DNA of 64,000 nt from Rhodospirillaceae bacterium (GTDB taxonomy: Bacteria > Pseudomonadota > Alphaproteobacteria > SMXQ01). Positions within the stretch are counted from its first letter, which is position 1. Every line of letters begins with the position of its first letter. Below, piece after piece: positions 27,586 through 45,363 of this stretch. The notes under the pieces are model-generated. The model made no database searches. It saw only the letters and a program-made list of their open reading frames with translations, and was not told where the DNA came from. The stretch is from contig CANJIM010000005.1 in the NCBI GenBank assembly GCA_947474495.1, positions 27 through 64,026 on the forward strand. The letters are read 5' to 3'. The position numbers and the translations under genes were made by a program.

Positions 27586-28443
27586 TCAAGCGGAGCGCTT
27601 GCGCCAAGCTTCGATCGGCCGCCAGAGGGCGGCGGCGAGCGGCAGCAGCAGCGTAATCCCCAGCACGATCCAAGCCGGGCGTGGGCCCGCCATGGTGGTC
27701 AGGTTGGCCTGCAGCACCAAGCTCGCGTCAATGCCGGTGAAGATCGCGTAATAAGCCCATTCGCCGGCGACGGTGATGAGGGCGGCGGCGACCGCGAGCA
27801 GGATCAGCGCCCACAGCGTCGTCACGCTCTTGCGGCTGAGAAACTCTTCCCAAACGCGATAGAGCATCAGCCAGGTGAACAGACCGGCCATGATCGTCGG
27901 CTCGGACACATTCAGTTTCGTCTGCATGAAGAAATGCACCACGGCAATCAGGCCGATGGGATAAGCGAGGCGGTGCAGCTTCTTCCAGCGCTTGCCGCCG
28001 AGCCGGCGCACCATGCCGTCGGTCGAGGTGGCGGCGAGCAGCGCGAGGCCGATGAGCCCGACGAAGCCGATGGTCAGGTAATAGCGCAGCAGGATTTCCG
28101 AGGCGACCTTGGCGAGATTGAACATCTCGTCGGCCATGTAGCCGACCAGATGAATGGCGATGTAGCAGAACGAGGCGACGCCGATGATACGGCGCACCGA
28201 GACCAGCTTGTGCGCTTTCAGCACTTGGCGCAGCGGCGTGATCAACAAGCTGACGAACAGCAAGCGGATCGACCAATCGCCGCTGCGATGGATGATCTCG
28301 GTGATCGGCTTGGCGCCGAGCATATGCTGCGCGAAGTCGACCGCGGTGATCAGGCCGGGCAGCATGACGAGCAGCAGCACCAGGCCCTTCAGAATAGGAA
28401 TGGTGCGGTCGGGGCGGGCCAGGGTGTCGTCTGCTGTTGTCAT
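27586..28443 (-). CDS. MsrQ/YedZ-like ferric-reductase-domain haem-b membrane protein, orphan
   Basis: RRIIGVASFCYIAIHLVGY and WKKLHRLAYPIGLIAVVHFF are YedZ-type His pairs. About 2 extra C-terminal TM helices. In-frame ATGs lie at 28443, 28455 and 28473. No msrP is adjacent. Confidence 0.65.
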   Translation of the reverse strand: MTTADDTLARPDRTIPILKGLVLLLVMLPGLITAVDFAQHMLGAKPITEIIHRSGDWSIRLLFVSLLITPLRQVLKAHKLVSVRRIIGVASFCYIAIHLVGYMADEMFNLAKVASEILLRYYLTIGFVGLIGLALLAATSTDGMVRRLGGKRWKKLHRLAYPIGLIAVVHFFMQTKLNVSEPTIMAGLFTWLMLYRVWEEFLSRKSVTTLWALILLAVAAALITVAGEWAYYAIFTGIDASLVLQANLTTMAGPRPAWIVLGITLLLPLAAALWRPIEAWRKRSA

Positions 28444-28448
28444 GGCTC

Positions 28449-28477
28449 TCAACATAAAGATGATTTTCAACATAAAG
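28449..28477. repeat. 11-bp perfect direct repeat TCAACATAAAG x2 (18-bp period) overlapping the candidate start codons of the MsrQ-like gene
   Basis: Copies at 28449-28459 and 28467-28477 are identical. On the minus strand each copy contains TTT ATG TTG A. Confidence 0.8.
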
Positions 28478-28751
28478 CCTGGGCCTGCCCGGGCAAATCA
28501 AAAGCCGTTCAGGGCCGTTTCGGAACGCCGCGGGCGGATGCCGGCAGCCAGCTTCTCGTTCGCTGCCCGGCGGCAAAGGTTACGCGAAGGCGAGTTTGCC
28601 GCGAATCACTCGCAAAACCATCCCTTCGTCGGTCATTCGAAGGGCATAGGTACAGTCTTAATGATGGGGGACAAAACTTAGGCTTAGCAGATATTGCCGC
28701 GAGGAGGAGGCATGGTCCGGGCACTGATTTCCCCAGAGCCCAGGAGCTCAC

Positions 28752-30440
28752 ATGTCCTCGTTCCAACGTTTGTCGATCCGCAACCAGTTGATCGCTGCAT
28801 TTTCTCTGTTGAGCGTTCTTATCGTCGCGCTTGGCGGCATCGCCGTCAGCCGCATCAATGCGATGGACGAGATCGCCGCGGAACTGACTGACAAGTGGTT
28901 GCCCAGCGTCCGCGAAGGCGGCGCACTTCAAGCCGATGCCGCAACCTATCGCGCAGCCGTTTTGCGTCACCTTTTGAACAGCGATGAAAAGGCAATGTCT
29001 GCAGCGGATGATGAGCGCGCCAAGGCGGCGGGCGATATCGCAAAAGCTGGGGCGGTTTTTGAAAAGCTGATTTCGTCGCCGGAGGAACGCGCGTTGTACG
29101 AGACTTTCGCCAATGCTTGGCAGTCCTACACGCGCCAAATCGAGGCCGTCATCGAGGTATCCCGCAAGGGGGATAAAGCCGGTGCCTTGGCCTTGAATAA
29201 CGCTCAAGCCTTGCCGGTTTATTTTACCGCATATAAGGCCTTGGCGCAGATGATCGAGCTCGACAACGTGGGCGCGACTGATGCCGATCGGCGCAGCGAA
29301 CAGATCATCGCCTTGGCGATGCAGCTTTTCGGCGGCGCTATCGTGATCGCCCTGCTGCTGGCTGTTGGATTGACGATCCTGATCGTGCGTAGCGTCGGCC
29401 AGGGCATCGCCTCTGTGGTCAAGCCGATGCAGGCCTTGTCACAGGGTGATCTTGACGTCGAGATCCCGTCGCGCGGCGAGAAGACCGAGATCGGCACCAT
29501 CGCCGACGCGGTCCAGCTCTTCAAGGATGCCTTGATCGAGAAGAAGCGCCTCGACGAAGCGTCCGCGCTCGATAGCGAAACGAAGATCAAGCGGGCGCAG
29601 AAGCTCGAGCTATTGACGCGCAACTTCGAGGACAAGGTCGGCGCTCTCGTGCAGTCCCTCACCTCGGCCTCGACCGAGCTCGAGGCCACTGCGCAGTCGA
29701 TGTCCGGCACGGCGGGCGAGACCAACAGCCAGGCGCTGGCCGTCGCCGCCTCGGCCGAACAGACCTCGGCCAACGTGCAGACCGTGGCGACCGCCACCGA
29801 GGAACTGTCTTCGTCGATTCAAGAGATCGGCCGTCAGGTCGAAGGCTCCAGCCGCCACGCGGCGCAGGCCGTGCAAGAGGCCAAGCGGACCGATGAGACC
29901 GTGCAGGCGCTGGCGCTCAGCGCCCAGAAGATCGGCGACGTCGTCAGCTTGATCACTGACATCGCCGCCCAGACCAACCTGCTGGCGCTCAATGCCACCA
30001 TCGAGGCGGCGCGCGCCGGCGAGGCCGGTAAGGGCTTCGCGGTCGTCGCCTCCGAGGTGAAGAATTTGGCCAATCAGACGGCAAAGGCGACTGAAGATAT
30101 CGGCACCCAGGTCGCGCAGATTCAGGCGACGACCCGCGATGCCGTGGCGGCGATCAAGACGATCGCGGCGACCATCGAGGAGATGAGCCAGACGACGTCG
30201 GCCATCGCCGCTGCGGTCGAGCAGCAGGGCGCTGCGACTCAGGAGATCGCCCACAACGTTCAGCAGGCCGCCCAGGGCACGCAGGAAGTCACCAGCAACA
30301 TCGGGCAGGTCAAGGATGCCGCGACCACGACCGGCGCGTCGGCCGACCAGGTGCTGAGCGCCGCCGGCGAATTGGCCCGACACTCGTCCGACCTGCGCCG
30401 CGAAGTCAGCGATTATATCGATGGCGTCAAGGCGGCTTGA
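28752..30440 (+). CDS. Methyl-accepting chemotaxis protein (4-helix-bundle sensor, TM, HAMP, signalling domain)
   Basis: AGGAG RBS. Two TM segments, and a HAMP-like segment after the second TM helix ([19 protein letters not shown]). The signalling hairpin [35 protein letters not shown] is highly conserved. Confidence 0.9.
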
Positions 30441-30442
30441 TC

Positions 30443-30880
30443 ATGAGCAACAAGCTTTTGCGTCTGTGCTACTTCAGCGCGTCTCGCTTGACCAGCACAT
30501 GGGACGTCACCTGCCTTGTCGAGCAATGCCGGTTGCACAATATGCTATCGGGCCTCACCGGCATTCTCCTCTATGAGGACAATACCTTCATGCAGATCCT
30601 CGAAGGAGAGCCGGAGGTTGTCGAGGCGGTCTTCCGCAAGATTCAGAATGACCCGCGGCATCGCTACGTGACGGAATTGCACACGGTCGAAGCCGATAGT
30701 CGTCTGCTCGGCGAATGGCCGATGGCCTTCATGAGCCGCAAGGAGTTTTCGCGGGTCGGGATTTCGCCGAATAAGGAGATGCTGGCCGCCCTGCAGACGT
30801 CGTATCGCGAAGCCGGCAACAACGAGTTGCAGAAGGTTCTTTCGAGCTTCTTTCTCGATATCAAGCAGGTCGTGAATTAA
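30443..30880 (+). CDS. Short BLUF-domain (blue-light FAD sensor) protein
   Basis: LLRLCYFS (photoactive Tyr), NTFMQILEG (Gln) and GEWPMAF (Trp-x-Met). The ATG lies 2 nt after the MCP stop, and the alternative TTG at 30437 overlaps it. Confidence 0.8.
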   Translation: MSNKLLRLCYFSASRLTSTWDVTCLVEQCRLHNMLSGLTGILLYEDNTFMQILEGEPEVVEAVFRKIQNDPRHRYVTELHTVEADSRLLGEWPMAFMSRKEFSRVGISPNKEMLAALQTSYREAGNNELQKVLSSFFLDIKQVVN

Positions 30881-30898
30881 GCATTCCCATAACCATCG

Positions 30899-31369
30899 TT
30901 AGGTCAGGGGCTTGGCATGGCTATGGCCATGTTTGCTGCCGTGGCCGTGCTTATGCTGGCTTTGCACCAGCTCCGTGCCGATCAAGTGCAGTTTGCCGTG
31001 GCGGACACCGGTTTCAGCGATGGTGGCCTCGGCGAAGCTCCGCAGGCTTTCGGTTTCGCCGTTGAGGACGACGACCTCCATGCAATTCTCGTGATCGAGA
31101 TGCACATGTAGCGTCGAGAGCACGTAAGAATGGTGGTCATGCTGCGCTTCGGTCAGGCGGCTGGCCAGCTCTCGTTGATGATGATTGTAGACATATGACA
31201 GGCAGCCGACCGAATGGGCGGCGCCGCCTTGCTTTTCCTGATCGCGCTCCAGGCGTTCGCGCAGCAGGTCGCGGATCGCTTCGGAACGGTTCGCGTATCC
31301 TTTGCGGTGCATATAGGCGTCGAACTTCACCAGAAGATCGTCGTCGAGGGAAATGCTGACCCGTTCCAT
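30899..31369 (-). CDS. nikR: NikR-type nickel-responsive ribbon-helix-helix regulator with a His-rich tail
   Basis: RHH N-terminus MERVSISLDDDLLVKFDAYM...RSEAIRDLLR. C-terminal ACT-like domain with HDHH...TLHVHLDHENCMEVV metal ligands. Tail QHKHGHGSKHGHSH. Confidence 0.8.
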   Translation of the reverse strand: MERVSISLDDDLLVKFDAYMHRKGYANRSEAIRDLLRERLERDQEKQGGAAHSVGCLSYVYNHHQRELASRLTEAQHDHHSYVLSTLHVHLDHENCMEVVVLNGETESLRSFAEATIAETGVRHGKLHLIGTELVQSQHKHGHGSKHGHSHAKPLT

Positions 31370-31441
31370 GCTGTCCGTCCTCTGTCGATGGGTGCGCCCA
31401 TCTTAGGCGAAGCCGGGCTTCAGGGAAATCGGCGGCTGCGC

Positions 31442-32806
31442 TCACAGGCGCGGTAAAAACATTGCCACTCTCGTGCCGGCGCCGGGAGCGGACTCGAGGA
31501 CAAGAAAACCCTTCGACTGGCGGGCGAAACCTTGCGCCATAGATAGGCCCAGGCCAGGGCCGCTGCCGACAGGCTTGGTCGTGAAGAACGGTTCGCAAGC
31601 GCGGATGCGAACTTCGTCGCTCATGCCGGGGCCGTTGTCGGAAACCGTGAGGCGTACGAAAGCGCCGGGCCGGCCATCGGGATTCAGGGATTTTGCGGCG
31701 TCTTCCGTCAAGGTTACATTGCTTGCGGCGAGCGTGATGCCGGCTGCGCCCGGCGCCGCGGCTTCCACGGCATTGGCCGCCAGTTCGGCAAGCGCTGCCA
31801 TCAATTGACGTCCATCGGCGTCGATCGCGCCGCAATCGTCCGAGATATCGAGTGCGATCTTGGCTGATTTCCCGTGCAAGGCGGAAATCATGGCGCTCAC
31901 GTTCTGCAGGACAGGTCCGATCTCAAGCCTACCCGGTTCAAGGAACTGCCTGCCGGAATAGGCCAGCATCCCGTTTGTCAAATTGCTGCCTTGATGGAAG
32001 GCATCCATCATCATGACAAGTGATTTTTGCAGCTTGGCGTCTGCGCTGCTTTGAAGATTTTCAGTGAGCAGGATCAATCCCGTGAAAAGATTATTGAACT
32101 CGTGAGCGATGCCGCCGGTCAGGCGCGTCAATGATTGATCCGCGCGCTGGCGCACGGCGACCGATTCGGCATAGGCCCGCGCTTGCTCGGCGCTTTGGCG
32201 TTGGCGGATTTCTTCGTTCAACTGGCGAGCGAGCTGGCGTAATTCGATCTCGTCGGCGGCGATATGCGCGAGCTCCATCAGAATCGATGCTTCGCGAGGA
32301 CCGATATCGGCGCGCGGCTTGTTGTCGATGGCGCAGACCGTGCCCAGGGCATAGCCGTCGTGAGTGACGATCGGCGCGCCGGCATAGAAGCGGATATGTG
32401 GTGCGCCGGTAACGAGCGGATTGCCGCGAAAGCGCACGTCGGTCGCGGCATCGGGGACGATCAATACTGCGTCGGGCTTCAAGATGGCGTGGGCGCAAAA
32501 GGCCCAATCGCGCGGCGTTTGGCTGGCCTCGAGCCCGGCCTTGGCCTTAAACCATTGCCGCTCTCCGTCGATCAGGGAGACGAGCGTGATGGGCGTGCCG
32601 ATCAACTGGGCCGCGATGCGCGTGAGGCGGTCGAACGCCGCTTCGGGGGGTGTGTCGAGAATGTCGGCGCGGCGCAGCGCAGCGAGACGCTCGGCCTCGT
32701 TCTTAGGCAGCGGGGCGGGTAGGTAATCGGAGGGGAGGAAGGACATGACGGCGTGACTCATCAAAATGTCGGGCATTGTCGTCCCGCGCCGATGAGCATC
32801 GGTCAC
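31442..32806 (-). CDS. GAF-domain sensor histidine kinase
   Basis: GAF region (ITLVSLIDGERQWFKAKAGL...RFYAGAPI). H-box GGIAHEFNNLFTGL. ATPase boxes DNGPGMS and GSGPGLGLSM. The start is uncertain (in-frame ATGs at 32806, 32776, 32761 and 32746). Confidence 0.8.
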   Translation of the reverse strand: MTDAHRRGTTMPDILMSHAVMSFLPSDYLPAPLPKNEAERLAALRRADILDTPPEAAFDRLTRIAAQLIGTPITLVSLIDGERQWFKAKAGLEASQTPRDWAFCAHAILKPDAVLIVPDAATDVRFRGNPLVTGAPHIRFYAGAPIVTHDGYALGTVCAIDNKPRADIGPREASILMELAHIAADEIELRQLARQLNEEIRQRQSAEQARAYAESVAVRQRADQSLTRLTGGIAHEFNNLFTGLILLTENLQSSADAKLQKSLVMMMDAFHQGSNLTNGMLAYSGRQFLEPGRLEIGPVLQNVSAMISALHGKSAKIALDISDDCGAIDADGRQLMAALAELAANAVEAAAPGAAGITLAASNVTLTEDAAKSLNPDGRPGAFVRLTVSDNGPGMSDEVRIRACEPFFTTKPVGSGPGLGLSMAQGFARQSKGFLVLESAPGAGTRVAMFLPRL

Positions 32807-43289: not shown

Positions 43290-44429
43290 ATGCCGTTCGA
43301 TTTTGAACAGAAATTTAAGATGGTGGATGCCTCGGGCCGCCAGACGCCTGACGTCCACACCTGGAAGGACCATTCGATGGACCTCTGGGCGCCGCTCATC
43401 ATCCGCAAGGAAGAGATCGACGCCGAGGTCGAGCGGTTGGCCGCTCTGCCGCGCCCGAACAACGGCGTGCGCCGCACCCAGTTCGTGCATCCGCAGTGCG
43501 AAGAAGGCCTCAAGAGCTTCGCGCCGGGTATCGGCCTGTCGCTCGATGTCCTGTTGCCGGGCGAGCGCACCCAGCGCGTCCGTACCAACTCGTCGATCGT
43601 CAACTTCCCGATCAAAGGCGCCGGCTCGATGATCGTCGGCGACAAGCGCTTCGAGTTCGGCCAGTACGACGTGCTCACCACGCCGTCGATGGCGGTGCAC
43701 GAGTACATCAACGACACCAAAGAGATTCAGGTGCGTCTGCGCTACGACAACGCGCCGCTGCTCGAGCGCCTGAAGATCCATTGGCTCGACGAGAATCCGC
43801 CGGAGCACACCACCGACGTGCATGACGCCAAAGCGGAATACGAGGCCAAAGGCAAGGAATTGCCGCAGAGCCCCTATGGCACCTTCCAGCTTACCGAAGA
43901 CGGCGCCTGGATGATGCCCTACGAGAAGCTCATCAACCCCGAGCCGATCTCGATCACGCCGCACCAGTGGCCGTGGAAGAAGGTCAAGACCGAGCTCGAC
44001 AAGCTTGCCGATCTCGGCGCGAGCTATAAGGGCCGTCGTCTATACCTGCTGTGGGACCCGGCGACGGGCCGCACCAACGGCACCAACCCGAACTTCTTCT
44101 CGGCCATCACGATCCGTCCGCAAGGCATCGTCGATCGCCCGCATCGCCATGCTTCGGCCGCCATCAACTACTACTTCGGCGGCGAGGGCCATTCGGTGGT
44201 GCAGGGCCAGCGGCTCGACTGGAAGGCCGGCGACCTGATGTTCTCGGCGCCAGGCTGGGCGATCCACAACCACGCGACCGACGTCGGCCCCGTGTACGAG
44301 ATGACCATTCAGGACATGCCCTTCTGCATCAACACCGACGCGCTGCTGTGGCAGGAAGACCTTAAGGGTCCGATCTCGCTCCTCGGCTCGCACGCCGGCT
44401 TCGAAACCAACCGCACCAAGGTGGCCTAA
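43290..44429 (+). CDS. Bicupin dioxygenase-like protein (gentisate 1,2-dioxygenase-like)
   Basis: GGAGGA RBS. 379 aa with two cupin barrels (…ERTQRVRTNSSIVNFPIKGAG… and …RPHRHASAAINYYFGGEGHS…). Confidence 0.7.
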   Translation: MPFDFEQKFKMVDASGRQTPDVHTWKDHSMDLWAPLIIRKEEIDAEVERLAALPRPNNGVRRTQFVHPQCEEGLKSFAPGIGLSLDVLLPGERTQRVRTNSSIVNFPIKGAGSMIVGDKRFEFGQYDVLTTPSMAVHEYINDTKEIQVRLRYDNAPLLERLKIHWLDENPPEHTTDVHDAKAEYEAKGKELPQSPYGTFQLTEDGAWMMPYEKLINPEPISITPHQWPWKKVKTELDKLADLGASYKGRRLYLLWDPATGRTNGTNPNFFSAITIRPQGIVDRPHRHASAAINYYFGGEGHSVVQGQRLDWKAGDLMFSAPGWAIHNHATDVGPVYEMTIQDMPFCINTDALLWQEDLKGPISLLGSHAGFETNRTKVA

Positions 44430-44430
44430 C

Positions 44431-45363
44431 GTGATTAAGCTGAAGAAGAATTTTCTGCGCGGCTCTTACCCGCCCGCCGTTACCCCGTTCAAGAACGGCA
44501 AGGTGGATTACGCCAAGTTCGAGGAAGTCGTCGACTACATGATCGTCAACGGCAGCCATGGCGTGCTCATCACCGGCACGACCGGCGAGCCGTCGACGCT
44601 GACCAGCGATGAGCGCAAGCAGCTCTACAAGATCGCCGTCGACGTCACCGCGAAGCGCGTGCCCGTCGTCGCCGCCACCGGCTCGCAGTCGGAAGCGGAA
44701 ACGATGGACCTGAGCTATGCCGCCGAAAAGGCCGGCGTCGATTCTCTGCTCGTCGTCACGCCGTACTACGTCCGTCCGCCGCAGCGCGGCCTGGTCGAGT
44801 ACTACGTGCAGATCGGCAAGAAGATCGACCTGCCGCTGATGATCTATCACATTCCCGGCCGCACGGCCGTGAGCGTGACCCTCGACACCGTCGAGCAGAT
44901 CATGAACCGCACCGAAAACCTCGTCGGCATCAAGCACGCGGTGAACGACATGGGCTTCGTCACCCACGCGCTCGACCGCTTCGGCTTCGACTTCCGCGTG
45001 TTCGTCGGCCTCGAAGACCTCAGCTTCCCGATGCTCTGCATCGGCGCCTGCGGCCTGATGAACGCCGTCGGCAACATCGCGCCGCGCAAGGTCGCCGACC
45101 TCTATGAGCAGACGGTCGCCGGCAACATCGAGAAGGCCCGTAAGATCCACTACGAGCTGACCGAGTTGAACGAGTCGGTGTTCTACGACACCAACCCGAT
45201 CGCGATTAAGTACATGATGATGAAGATGGGCGTTCTCGAGAAGAACGAGCATCGCCTGCCGATGATGTCGGCGACCGCCGAAGTGGCCGCGCGACTGGAC
45301 GGCGTCATGAAGCGCGCCGGCTTGACCGGCAACGGCAAGAAGGCGAAAAAGAAAGCGGCTTAA
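44431..45363 (+). CDS. Dihydrodipicolinate-synthase/N-acetylneuraminate-lyase family class I aldolase
   Basis: GTG lies 1 nt after the previous stop, with AAGGTGG upstream. GTTGEPSTLT, IYHIPGRT and the Schiff-base Lys in VGIKHAVND. Lys-rich tail. Confidence 0.85.
   Translation: MIKLKKNFLRGSYPPAVTPFKNGKVDYAKFEEVVDYMIVNGSHGVLITGTTGEPSTLTSDERKQLYKIAVDVTAKRVPVVAATGSQSEAETMDLSYAAEKAGVDSLLVVTPYYVRPPQRGLVEYYVQIGKKIDLPLMIYHIPGRTAVSVTLDTVEQIMNRTENLVGIKHAVNDMGFVTHALDRFGFDFRVFVGLEDLSFPMLCIGACGLMNAVGNIAPRKVADLYEQTVAGNIEKARKIHYELTELNESVFYDTNPIAIKYMMMKMGVLEKNEHRLPMMSATAEVAARLDGVMKRAGLTGNGKKAKKKAA

Follow-up and report, generated by a model that had tools for sequence, protein, structure and literature searches.

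Short BLUF proteins signal by light-dependent protein binding and their partners are usually encoded next door, as in the pairs PixD-PixE of Synechocystis, PapB-PapA of Rhodopseudomonas palustris and BluF (YcgF)-BluR of E. coli. In these systems, a stand-alone BLUF domain with two C-terminal helices carries the photocycle residues Tyr, Gln, Trp and Met and is encoded in an operon with a signaling protein. The same arrangement is found in a stretch of 64,000 nucleotides (nt) from a Rhodospirillaceae bacterium (assembly GCA_947474495.1, contig CANJIM010000005.1, positions 27–64,026; this whole stretch is the window in the following), in which the gene of a transmembrane methyl-accepting chemotaxis protein (MCP), here called MCP1, precedes the gene of a short BLUF protein. 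A preliminary description had read this pair as a possible blue-light input to chemotaxis. The pair differs from the characterized ones in the type of neighbor, which is a PATAN-REC protein, an EAL enzyme and a MerR-type repressor in PixD-PixE, PapB-PapA and BluF-BluR, respectively, whereas here it is a transmembrane MCP. It also differs in that MCP1, here a candidate partner, is dispensable in one lineage. BlsA of Acinetobacter baumannii (6w6z) and BlrB of Rhodobacter sphaeroides (2byc), the two solved structures that match best in sequence, have the same short-BLUF architecture but are not in an operon with a chemoreceptor, and we take both to be without an adjacent partner.

Pairs of a soluble sensor and an MCP are known or predicted, namely CetB-CetA of Campylobacter jejuni and PYP with adjacent sensor-less chemoreceptors in Leptospira and others (PMC9664959). 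Together with PYP-MCP fusions (PMC12826048) and the sensory rhodopsin-Htr complexes (SR-Htr) they combine a cofactor-binding sensor with an MCP, and the logic proposed for them, in which the sensor attaches to a transducer that in turn controls CheA, resembles the one considered here. However, their pairing recurs across taxa, whereas MCP1-BLUF is confined to one genus. In the gammaproteobacterium Spongiibacter nanhainus CSC3.9 a short BLUF gene (I6N98_15960) adjoins the che/motAB cluster, and its deletion altered swimming-plate migration and che gene expression in blue light (PMC8805636). This is likewise a short BLUF with a genomic link to chemotaxis genes, but it belongs to an unrelated BLUF lineage, precedes a whole che cluster, has its effect on expression and was reported without a partner, whereas in the window BLUF follows a single MCP gene. 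A preprint on Achromatium asserts BLUF-containing MCPs, a claim that is unverified (10.64898/2026.03.30.715255). In full-text literature searches no described BLUF-MCP partner pair was found, which agrees with the preliminary description. We know of no demonstration of a flavin-BLUF input to a chemoreceptor, of no dedicated receptor for blue-light taxis in flagellated bacteria that are not phototrophic and, for most short BLUF proteins, of no signaling partner.

The pair and its parts are located in the window as follows:

28595..28751, + strand: putative promoter and 5' leader of the MCP1-BLUF operon, conserved, 75–77% identical in relatives
28752..30440, + strand: MCP1, transmembrane chemoreceptor of 562 aa (ATG 28752, TGA 30438–30440; list of open reading frames (ORFs) and direct base reading)
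28770..29303, + strand: 4HB_MCP_1 domain of MCP1, residues 7–184 (Pfam, 1.4e-22)
29379..29534, + strand: HAMP domain of MCP1, residues 210–261 (Pfam)
29844..30326, + strand: MCPsignal domain of MCP1, residues 365–525 (Pfam, 7.6e-33)
30438..30445, + strand: junction TGA-TC-ATG, i.e., MCP1 stop, 2 nt, BLUF start (base reading)
30443..30880, + strand: short BLUF protein of 145 aa (ATG 30443, TAA 30878–30880; ORF list, direct base reading, PF04940)
30455..30727, + strand: BLUF domain, residues 5–95 (PF04940, 2e-23)
30770..30853, + strand: two C-terminal helices of BLUF, residues 110–124 and 127–137 (AlphaFold2 (AF2) model)

ORFs, base reading and Pfam bear out the earlier statement that a full-length transmembrane MCP is followed by a short BLUF protein with its ATG 2 nt after the MCP1 TGA; the length of 146 aa given for the latter has to be corrected to 145 aa (30443–30880). 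MCP1 has the features of an MCP, i.e., an MCPsignal domain with the conserved hairpin tip, a HAMP domain, two transmembrane segments (hydrophobic stretches at residues ~13–33 and ~189–213 in the translation) and a periplasmic ligand-binding domain, and its tip sequence is identical to that of its paralogs. Trees place it, together with an MCP2 of some congeners, in a genus-specific clade.

The BLUF protein scores 82.7 bits against a cut-off of 25 for PF04940, covering profile positions 1–92, and contains the motifs LCYFS (Tyr10), FMQILEG (Gln51) and EWPMAF (Trp92, Met94). The AppA counterparts of these photocycle residues are Y21, Q63, W104 and M106. That the photocycle residues are kept, as noted before, is supported by an alignment of nine relatives, in which Tyr10, Asn33, Gln51, Trp92 and Met94 are invariant, and the photocycle residues and the flavin-contacting Asn line up with those of BlsA and BlrB. 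The AF2 model (pLDDT 80, pTM 0.76) has a ferredoxin-like beta-alpha-beta-beta-alpha-beta-beta fold with strands at residues 5–14, 39–45, 48–55, 73–84 and 95–98 and helices at 19–36 and 57–69; the region of the C-terminal helices is conserved within the BLUF clade. The top Foldseek matches of the model are all BLUF structures (TePixD, PixD, BlrB, BlsA and photoactivated cyclases, E ~1e-10), and phmmer finds BlsA 6w6z (4e-15) and BlrB 2byc (4e-13) as the closest solved structures with ~30% identity. This makes the protein a candidate for a short, stand-alone BLUF sensor of blue light, with flavin as its predicted ligand. Between the present genome and L123 (dS 0.27) the ratio of nonsynonymous to synonymous substitution rates (dN/dS) is 0.125 for MCP1 and 0.18 for BLUF, and both genes are under purifying selection in this comparison.

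The arrangement of the two genes suggests a two-gene operon that is probably co-transcribed and restricted to one genus, with BLUF translation probably coupled to MCP1 termination. Five of six lineages share the TGA/TAA-TC-ATG junction, namely the present genome, L125, L123 (with TAA), L008 and G004, the last of which keeps the 2 nt though its BLUF is only 53% identical; in L003 a 32-nt spacer with a GAGGAA motif is found instead. The alternative TTG start of the preliminary description does exist at position 30437, where it overlaps the MCP1 stop and would give 147 aa, but it is probably unused, because L123 has TAA-TC-ATG without this TTG and because the N-termini of homologs align on the ATG. 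The leader upstream of MCP1 is retained where the MCP ORF is deleted (L005, L006 and G005/L011) and there stands directly before BLUF. No hairpin with T-run lies between MCP1 and BLUF in the window. An Rfam scan of operon and leader gave no match and a promoter scan of the leader no confident sigma-70 consensus; a scan for a terminator consensus was uninformative.

Within the genus, the pair occupies a chromosomal slot with the following borders:

27586..28473, − strand: ferric-reductase-like membrane protein, left border, present in all congeners with or without MCP/BLUF (Pfam)
30899..31369, − strand: NikR, right border, convergent with BLUF with 18 nt between the stop codons (Pfam)

Among the congeners, five states of this slot are found:

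MCP1-BLUF: the present genome, L125, L123, the P0004 contig, L003 and G004
MCP1-BLUF-MCP2: L008
BLUF alone: G005 (= L011) and L005–L007
MCP2 alone: G001
empty: G002 and G003

MCP1 and BLUF are thus adjacent in seven lineages (the present genome, L125, L123, the P0004 contig, L003, G004 and L008), and in L008 BLUF sits between two MCPs of one clade. The adjacency within the genus is more than chance, since the operon is kept in six lineages with BLUF down to 53% identity and the junction in five of these. The MCP of G001 groups with the downstream MCP2 of L008 with a support of 100/100. G001 had been considered as a case of MCP1 without BLUF, which is ruled out by the tree; as the G001 MCP is the ortholog of the L008 MCP2, MCP1 and BLUF are jointly absent from G001 with MCP2 being kept. 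Behind its stand-alone MCP2 gene, G001 has a long hairpin rich in GC and then a T-run (L119 6699–6783), which by eye resemble an intrinsic terminator. In G002, which is without a BLUF of this clade, an MCP1 ortholog (71% identical over the full length) is encoded immediately before cheW, within a che operon of the order REC-LuxR, MCP612, MCP561, CheW, CheA-REC, CheY, CheB, CheR, CheZ-like, and MCP1 is therefore regarded as a regular component of the chemotaxis pathway.

The clade to which this BLUF belongs is very narrow. A word-index search resulted in only eight clusters at 90% identity, and when 1.8 billion representatives were searched exhaustively with HMMER, the 10,836 BLUF proteins obtained included just one other cluster at 50% identity with E<1e-30. 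All members are from one alphaproteobacterial genus of freshwater metagenome-assembled genomes (MAGs), one congener being labeled 'Rhizobium sp. Q54' in NCBI.

The reading we put forward tentatively, with a probability of roughly 0.4, is that BLUF feeds light information to the chemoreceptor array in the motile congeners and that the pair is orphaned in the present genome. The operon would be transcribed from a promoter upstream of MCP1, and BLUF translation would be coupled to MCP1 termination. In the motile congeners, BLUF might then dock on the chemoreceptor array at its cytoplasmic part, with MCP1 as first docking candidate; other MCPs are possible targets as well because the signaling tips are nearly identical. 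Docking in blue light would bias the control of CheA and might result in a photophobic or phototactic response. Both the contact of BLUF and MCP and its effect on CheA are proposals. In the present genome the CheA route is dead, because the assembly lacks cheW, cheA, cheY, cheB and cheR as well as the flagellar supercluster and shows deletion scars in their places; here either the pair would be an orphaned but intact remnant or BLUF would have kept only a role independent of MCPs, and light-steered swimming of this organism is very unlikely. The functional link is supported by the conserved 2-nt coupling, the adjacency in seven lineages, the position of BLUF between two MCPs in L008, the joint absence of MCP1 and BLUF from G001, the retention of the leader for BLUF and the purifying selection on both genes. 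Further support comes from the neighboring partners of PixD, PapB and BluF, from the Spongiibacter case, from the known or predicted pairs of a soluble sensor and an MCP, from the presence of CheW, CheA and FlhA in all five congeners and from the place of the MCP1 ortholog in the che operon of G002.

Several findings weigh against this reading, and most of them speak for a rival one. In the rival reading, BLUF is a photoreceptor in its own right that has no more than the promoter in common with MCP1, its partner is encoded elsewhere, e.g., a transcription regulator as for BlsA of Acinetobacter, and MCP1 is an ordinary chemoreceptor for a periplasmic ligand. In the G005/L005 lineage a clean deletion that begins at the start codon has removed all of MCP1 but its last ~20 codons: the leader (window 28595–28730) is kept, the MCP start reads ATT, and the sequence jumps to window ~30376–30436 and continues with BLUF. 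Two genomes with this common scar, L005 and G005, give a dN/dS of 0.11 for BLUF (dN 0.021, dS 0.18), which shows that BLUF stayed under selection after the loss of MCP1. G005, which carries CheA, CheW and FlhA, has no gene of the MCP1/MCP2 clade (best match 48% identical), and the value of BLUF is therefore independent of MCP1; BLUF could still act on other MCPs, with their nearly identical tips, or on something unrelated to chemotaxis. MCP1, moreover, has its own periplasmic sensor (4HB_MCP_1/TarH, four-helix bundle, residues 7–184), whereas the transducers of the CetAB, PYP and SR-Htr systems are without a sensor domain of their own, and its cytoplasmic domain has no clade-specific insertion compared to its paralogs. 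This comparison also disposes of an extra cytoplasmic docking segment as BLUF site. The MCP1 ortholog of G002 serves in a che operon without a BLUF of this clade. A second short BLUF of the genus, which is conserved in G002–G005, has as neighbors the gene of a LigB-type dioxygenase and two ORFs that match nothing in Pfam; since none of these is a signaling gene, short BLUFs of this genus can work without an adjacent partner, as presumably do the closest solved relatives BlsA and BlrB. Outside the genus, flanks of ±6 kb around 78 phylogenetically diverse BLUF loci and of ±4 kb around 80 BLUF loci from an even draw of 400 alphaproteobacterial genomes were inspected, and a co-directional adjacent MCP was found at 0 of the 158 loci. 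The first sample contained no adjacent MCP in any orientation, one MCP at 4 kb distance and two loci with CheB/CheR-like genes within 6 kb, the second an MCP within 4 kb at four loci and CheA within 4 kb at two, but in no case adjacent in the same direction. Such numbers are close to those expected by chance, by our rough estimate ~8% of loci (che-related genes ~1% of all genes, ~8 genes per flank). The search for BLUF genes downstream of MCP genes that the preliminary description had proposed thus turned out positive within the genus and negative beyond it, and the pairing, known from seven lineages, absent in the G005/L005 lineage and not found outside the genus, is a lineage-specific arrangement and not a general BLUF pattern. 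Fusions of BLUF and MCP are likewise missing among the ten longest (at least 378 aa) of the 150 best of the 10,836 BLUF representatives, which are photoactivated cyclases, BLUF-EAL or multi-BLUF proteins without MCPsignal, and a word-index search for BLUF proteins of 280–890 aa, in which the chimeric BLUF+MCP query was limited to its BLUF part, returned nothing. Finally, CheA, CheW, CheB, CheR, FlhA, FlgE, FlgH and FliP are absent from the present assembly, in which both genes of the pair are nevertheless intact. An independent BLUF is, however, at odds with the 2-nt coupling conserved across the genus, with the L008 arrangement, with the joint loss in G001 and with the fact that the partners of characterized short BLUFs are mostly neighbors, and gene order nominates no other partner, as NikR and the GAF kinase beside it occur regardless of BLUF. 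We regard an independent BLUF as a possibility to be taken seriously, though still a doubtful one. As to light input to chemotaxis as proposed originally, what stands is the short BLUF candidate with its photocycle residues and the conserved operon with its junction; what speaks against the proposal is that CheA and flagellum are absent here, that the genes are separable and that MCP1 has a sensor of its own.

The absence of che genes from the window, as stated in the preliminary description, is correct but understated, since it extends to the whole assembly, a MAG of 2.99 Mb in 127 contigs with an estimated completeness of 96% that is not closed. It contains no CheW-like domain and no che-specific match even at E 1e-3, so that MCP1 has neither CheA nor CheW beside it in this assembly, whereas all five congeners carry CheA, CheW, CheB, CheR and FlhA. 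It might be argued that these genes were merely not binned, due to incompleteness of the MAG or strain heterogeneity, and that the organism is motile with the light-chemotaxis model unchanged. The number of contigs and the estimated completeness would allow for this, as would the flanks of the G002 che locus, which map to the contigs C109 and C56 near contig ends. However, C109 keeps only a 52-nt MCP fragment at the left che flank (G000:C109:150-201), and C56 extends beyond the break in synteny by 1.5 kb, which hold genes unrelated to che (G000:C56:20594-22062). Moreover, the single contig C17 (41.4–45.1 kb; G000:C17:41463-45063) carries three remnants in the order in which they occur in G002 (C1, 193–259 kb), i.e., a CtrA-like gene, a 0.5-kb segment that matches G002 at ~233.5 kb and the ORF 43774–45063. 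The first ~50 residues of this ORF are FlgB-like and the rest, fused in frame, is the HisKA-HATPase-REC C-terminal half of a hybrid kinase of ~900 aa. The ~59 kb of G002 between them, with FlhA, FlgE, FlgH, FliP and others, have no counterpart anywhere in the present assembly. The absences of che and flagellar genes are therefore read as real deletions rather than binning gaps, and unbinned genes are a clearly improbable explanation. What is left of the MCPs are four full-length genes and two remnants (C109, C24), and an output of MCP1-BLUF that needs no CheA might be invoked to explain why the pair and three further full-length MCPs are retained although che and flagellar genes are gone. Four intact MCPs and BLUF without any CheW-like domain in the assembly, as well as the purifying selection on MCP1 and BLUF between the present genome and L123, are consistent with such an output. 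However, the loss may be recent (dS to L125 only 0.016), the dN/dS relative to L123 mostly reflects the time before the che loss, the MCP remnants on C109 and C24 indicate decay under way, no such MCP output is known in this group, and the MAG is 96% complete and not closed. We consider a CheA-independent output to be quite improbable, and it is highly improbable that MCP1-BLUF is a true photoreceptor-transducer and first BLUF:MCP pair whose output, in view of its retention in a che-less genome, is other than CheA.

All parts of the locus are from known families; new is the kind of protein that is the candidate partner, and this within a narrow lineage. The conserved and probably translationally coupled MCP-BLUF operon provides a concrete candidate pair, and the natural variants (MCP-BLUF, BLUF without MCP, MCP without BLUF, neither gene, and a genome without che genes) provide a comparative panel. 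At the same time, the slot variants caution that gene order alone over-predicts partnership. If BLUF does feed light information to the array, the pair would be a fourth class of coupling of a soluble photoreceptor to an MCP beside SR-Htr, PYP-MCP and CBCR-MCP; if it does not, the photoreceptor gene would be a hitch-hiker on the promoter of a chemoreceptor gene.

As to the neighboring genes, NikR and a GAF-HisKA-HATPase kinase form a pair (window 30899–32806) that adjoins the slot in the relatives checked, independent of MCP/BLUF; in G001 only NikR was detected in the examined stretch and not the GAF kinase. NikR is strongly conserved (dN/dS 0.02–0.1) and 83–98% identical in every relative checked (G001–G005, L003, L005, L008), and as it is kept with BLUF present or absent it is not BLUF-dependent. 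The GAF kinase is 66–76% identical in the BLUF-less congeners G002 and G003, as it is in BLUF carriers. NikR and the GAF kinase had been considered as BLUF partners by gene order and were rejected, both being present in G002 and G003.

Further observations were made on BLUF loci elsewhere. The second short BLUF of the present genome has 137 aa and is 25% identical to the first (G000:C10:43773-44045; L001 1492–1905). In Alteromonas sp. 5E99-2 (L035 6001–7920), a short BLUF is immediately followed by a CheB-like and CheR-like coding sequence, a possible link to a methylation module. In L225 (G068:C5:370182-378454) a BLUF-containing open frame of 320 aa lies tail-to-tail with an MCP, and in L175 and L199 CheA is encoded 2.5–3 kb from the BLUF gene; these cases are isolated and at about the chance rate.

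The che operon of the congeners (cheW-cheA-cheY-cheB-cheR-cheZ-like with two MCPs) is absent from the present genome as a unit, and the remnant on C24 is a C-terminal MCP fragment (G000:C24:12629-12835). A remaining MCP of 668 aa (G000:C19:20669-22675) carries a C-terminal extension of ~100 aa past the signaling domain, which starts with RRRKPRYNI and by eye looks like a PilZ-type c-di-GMP-binding motif.

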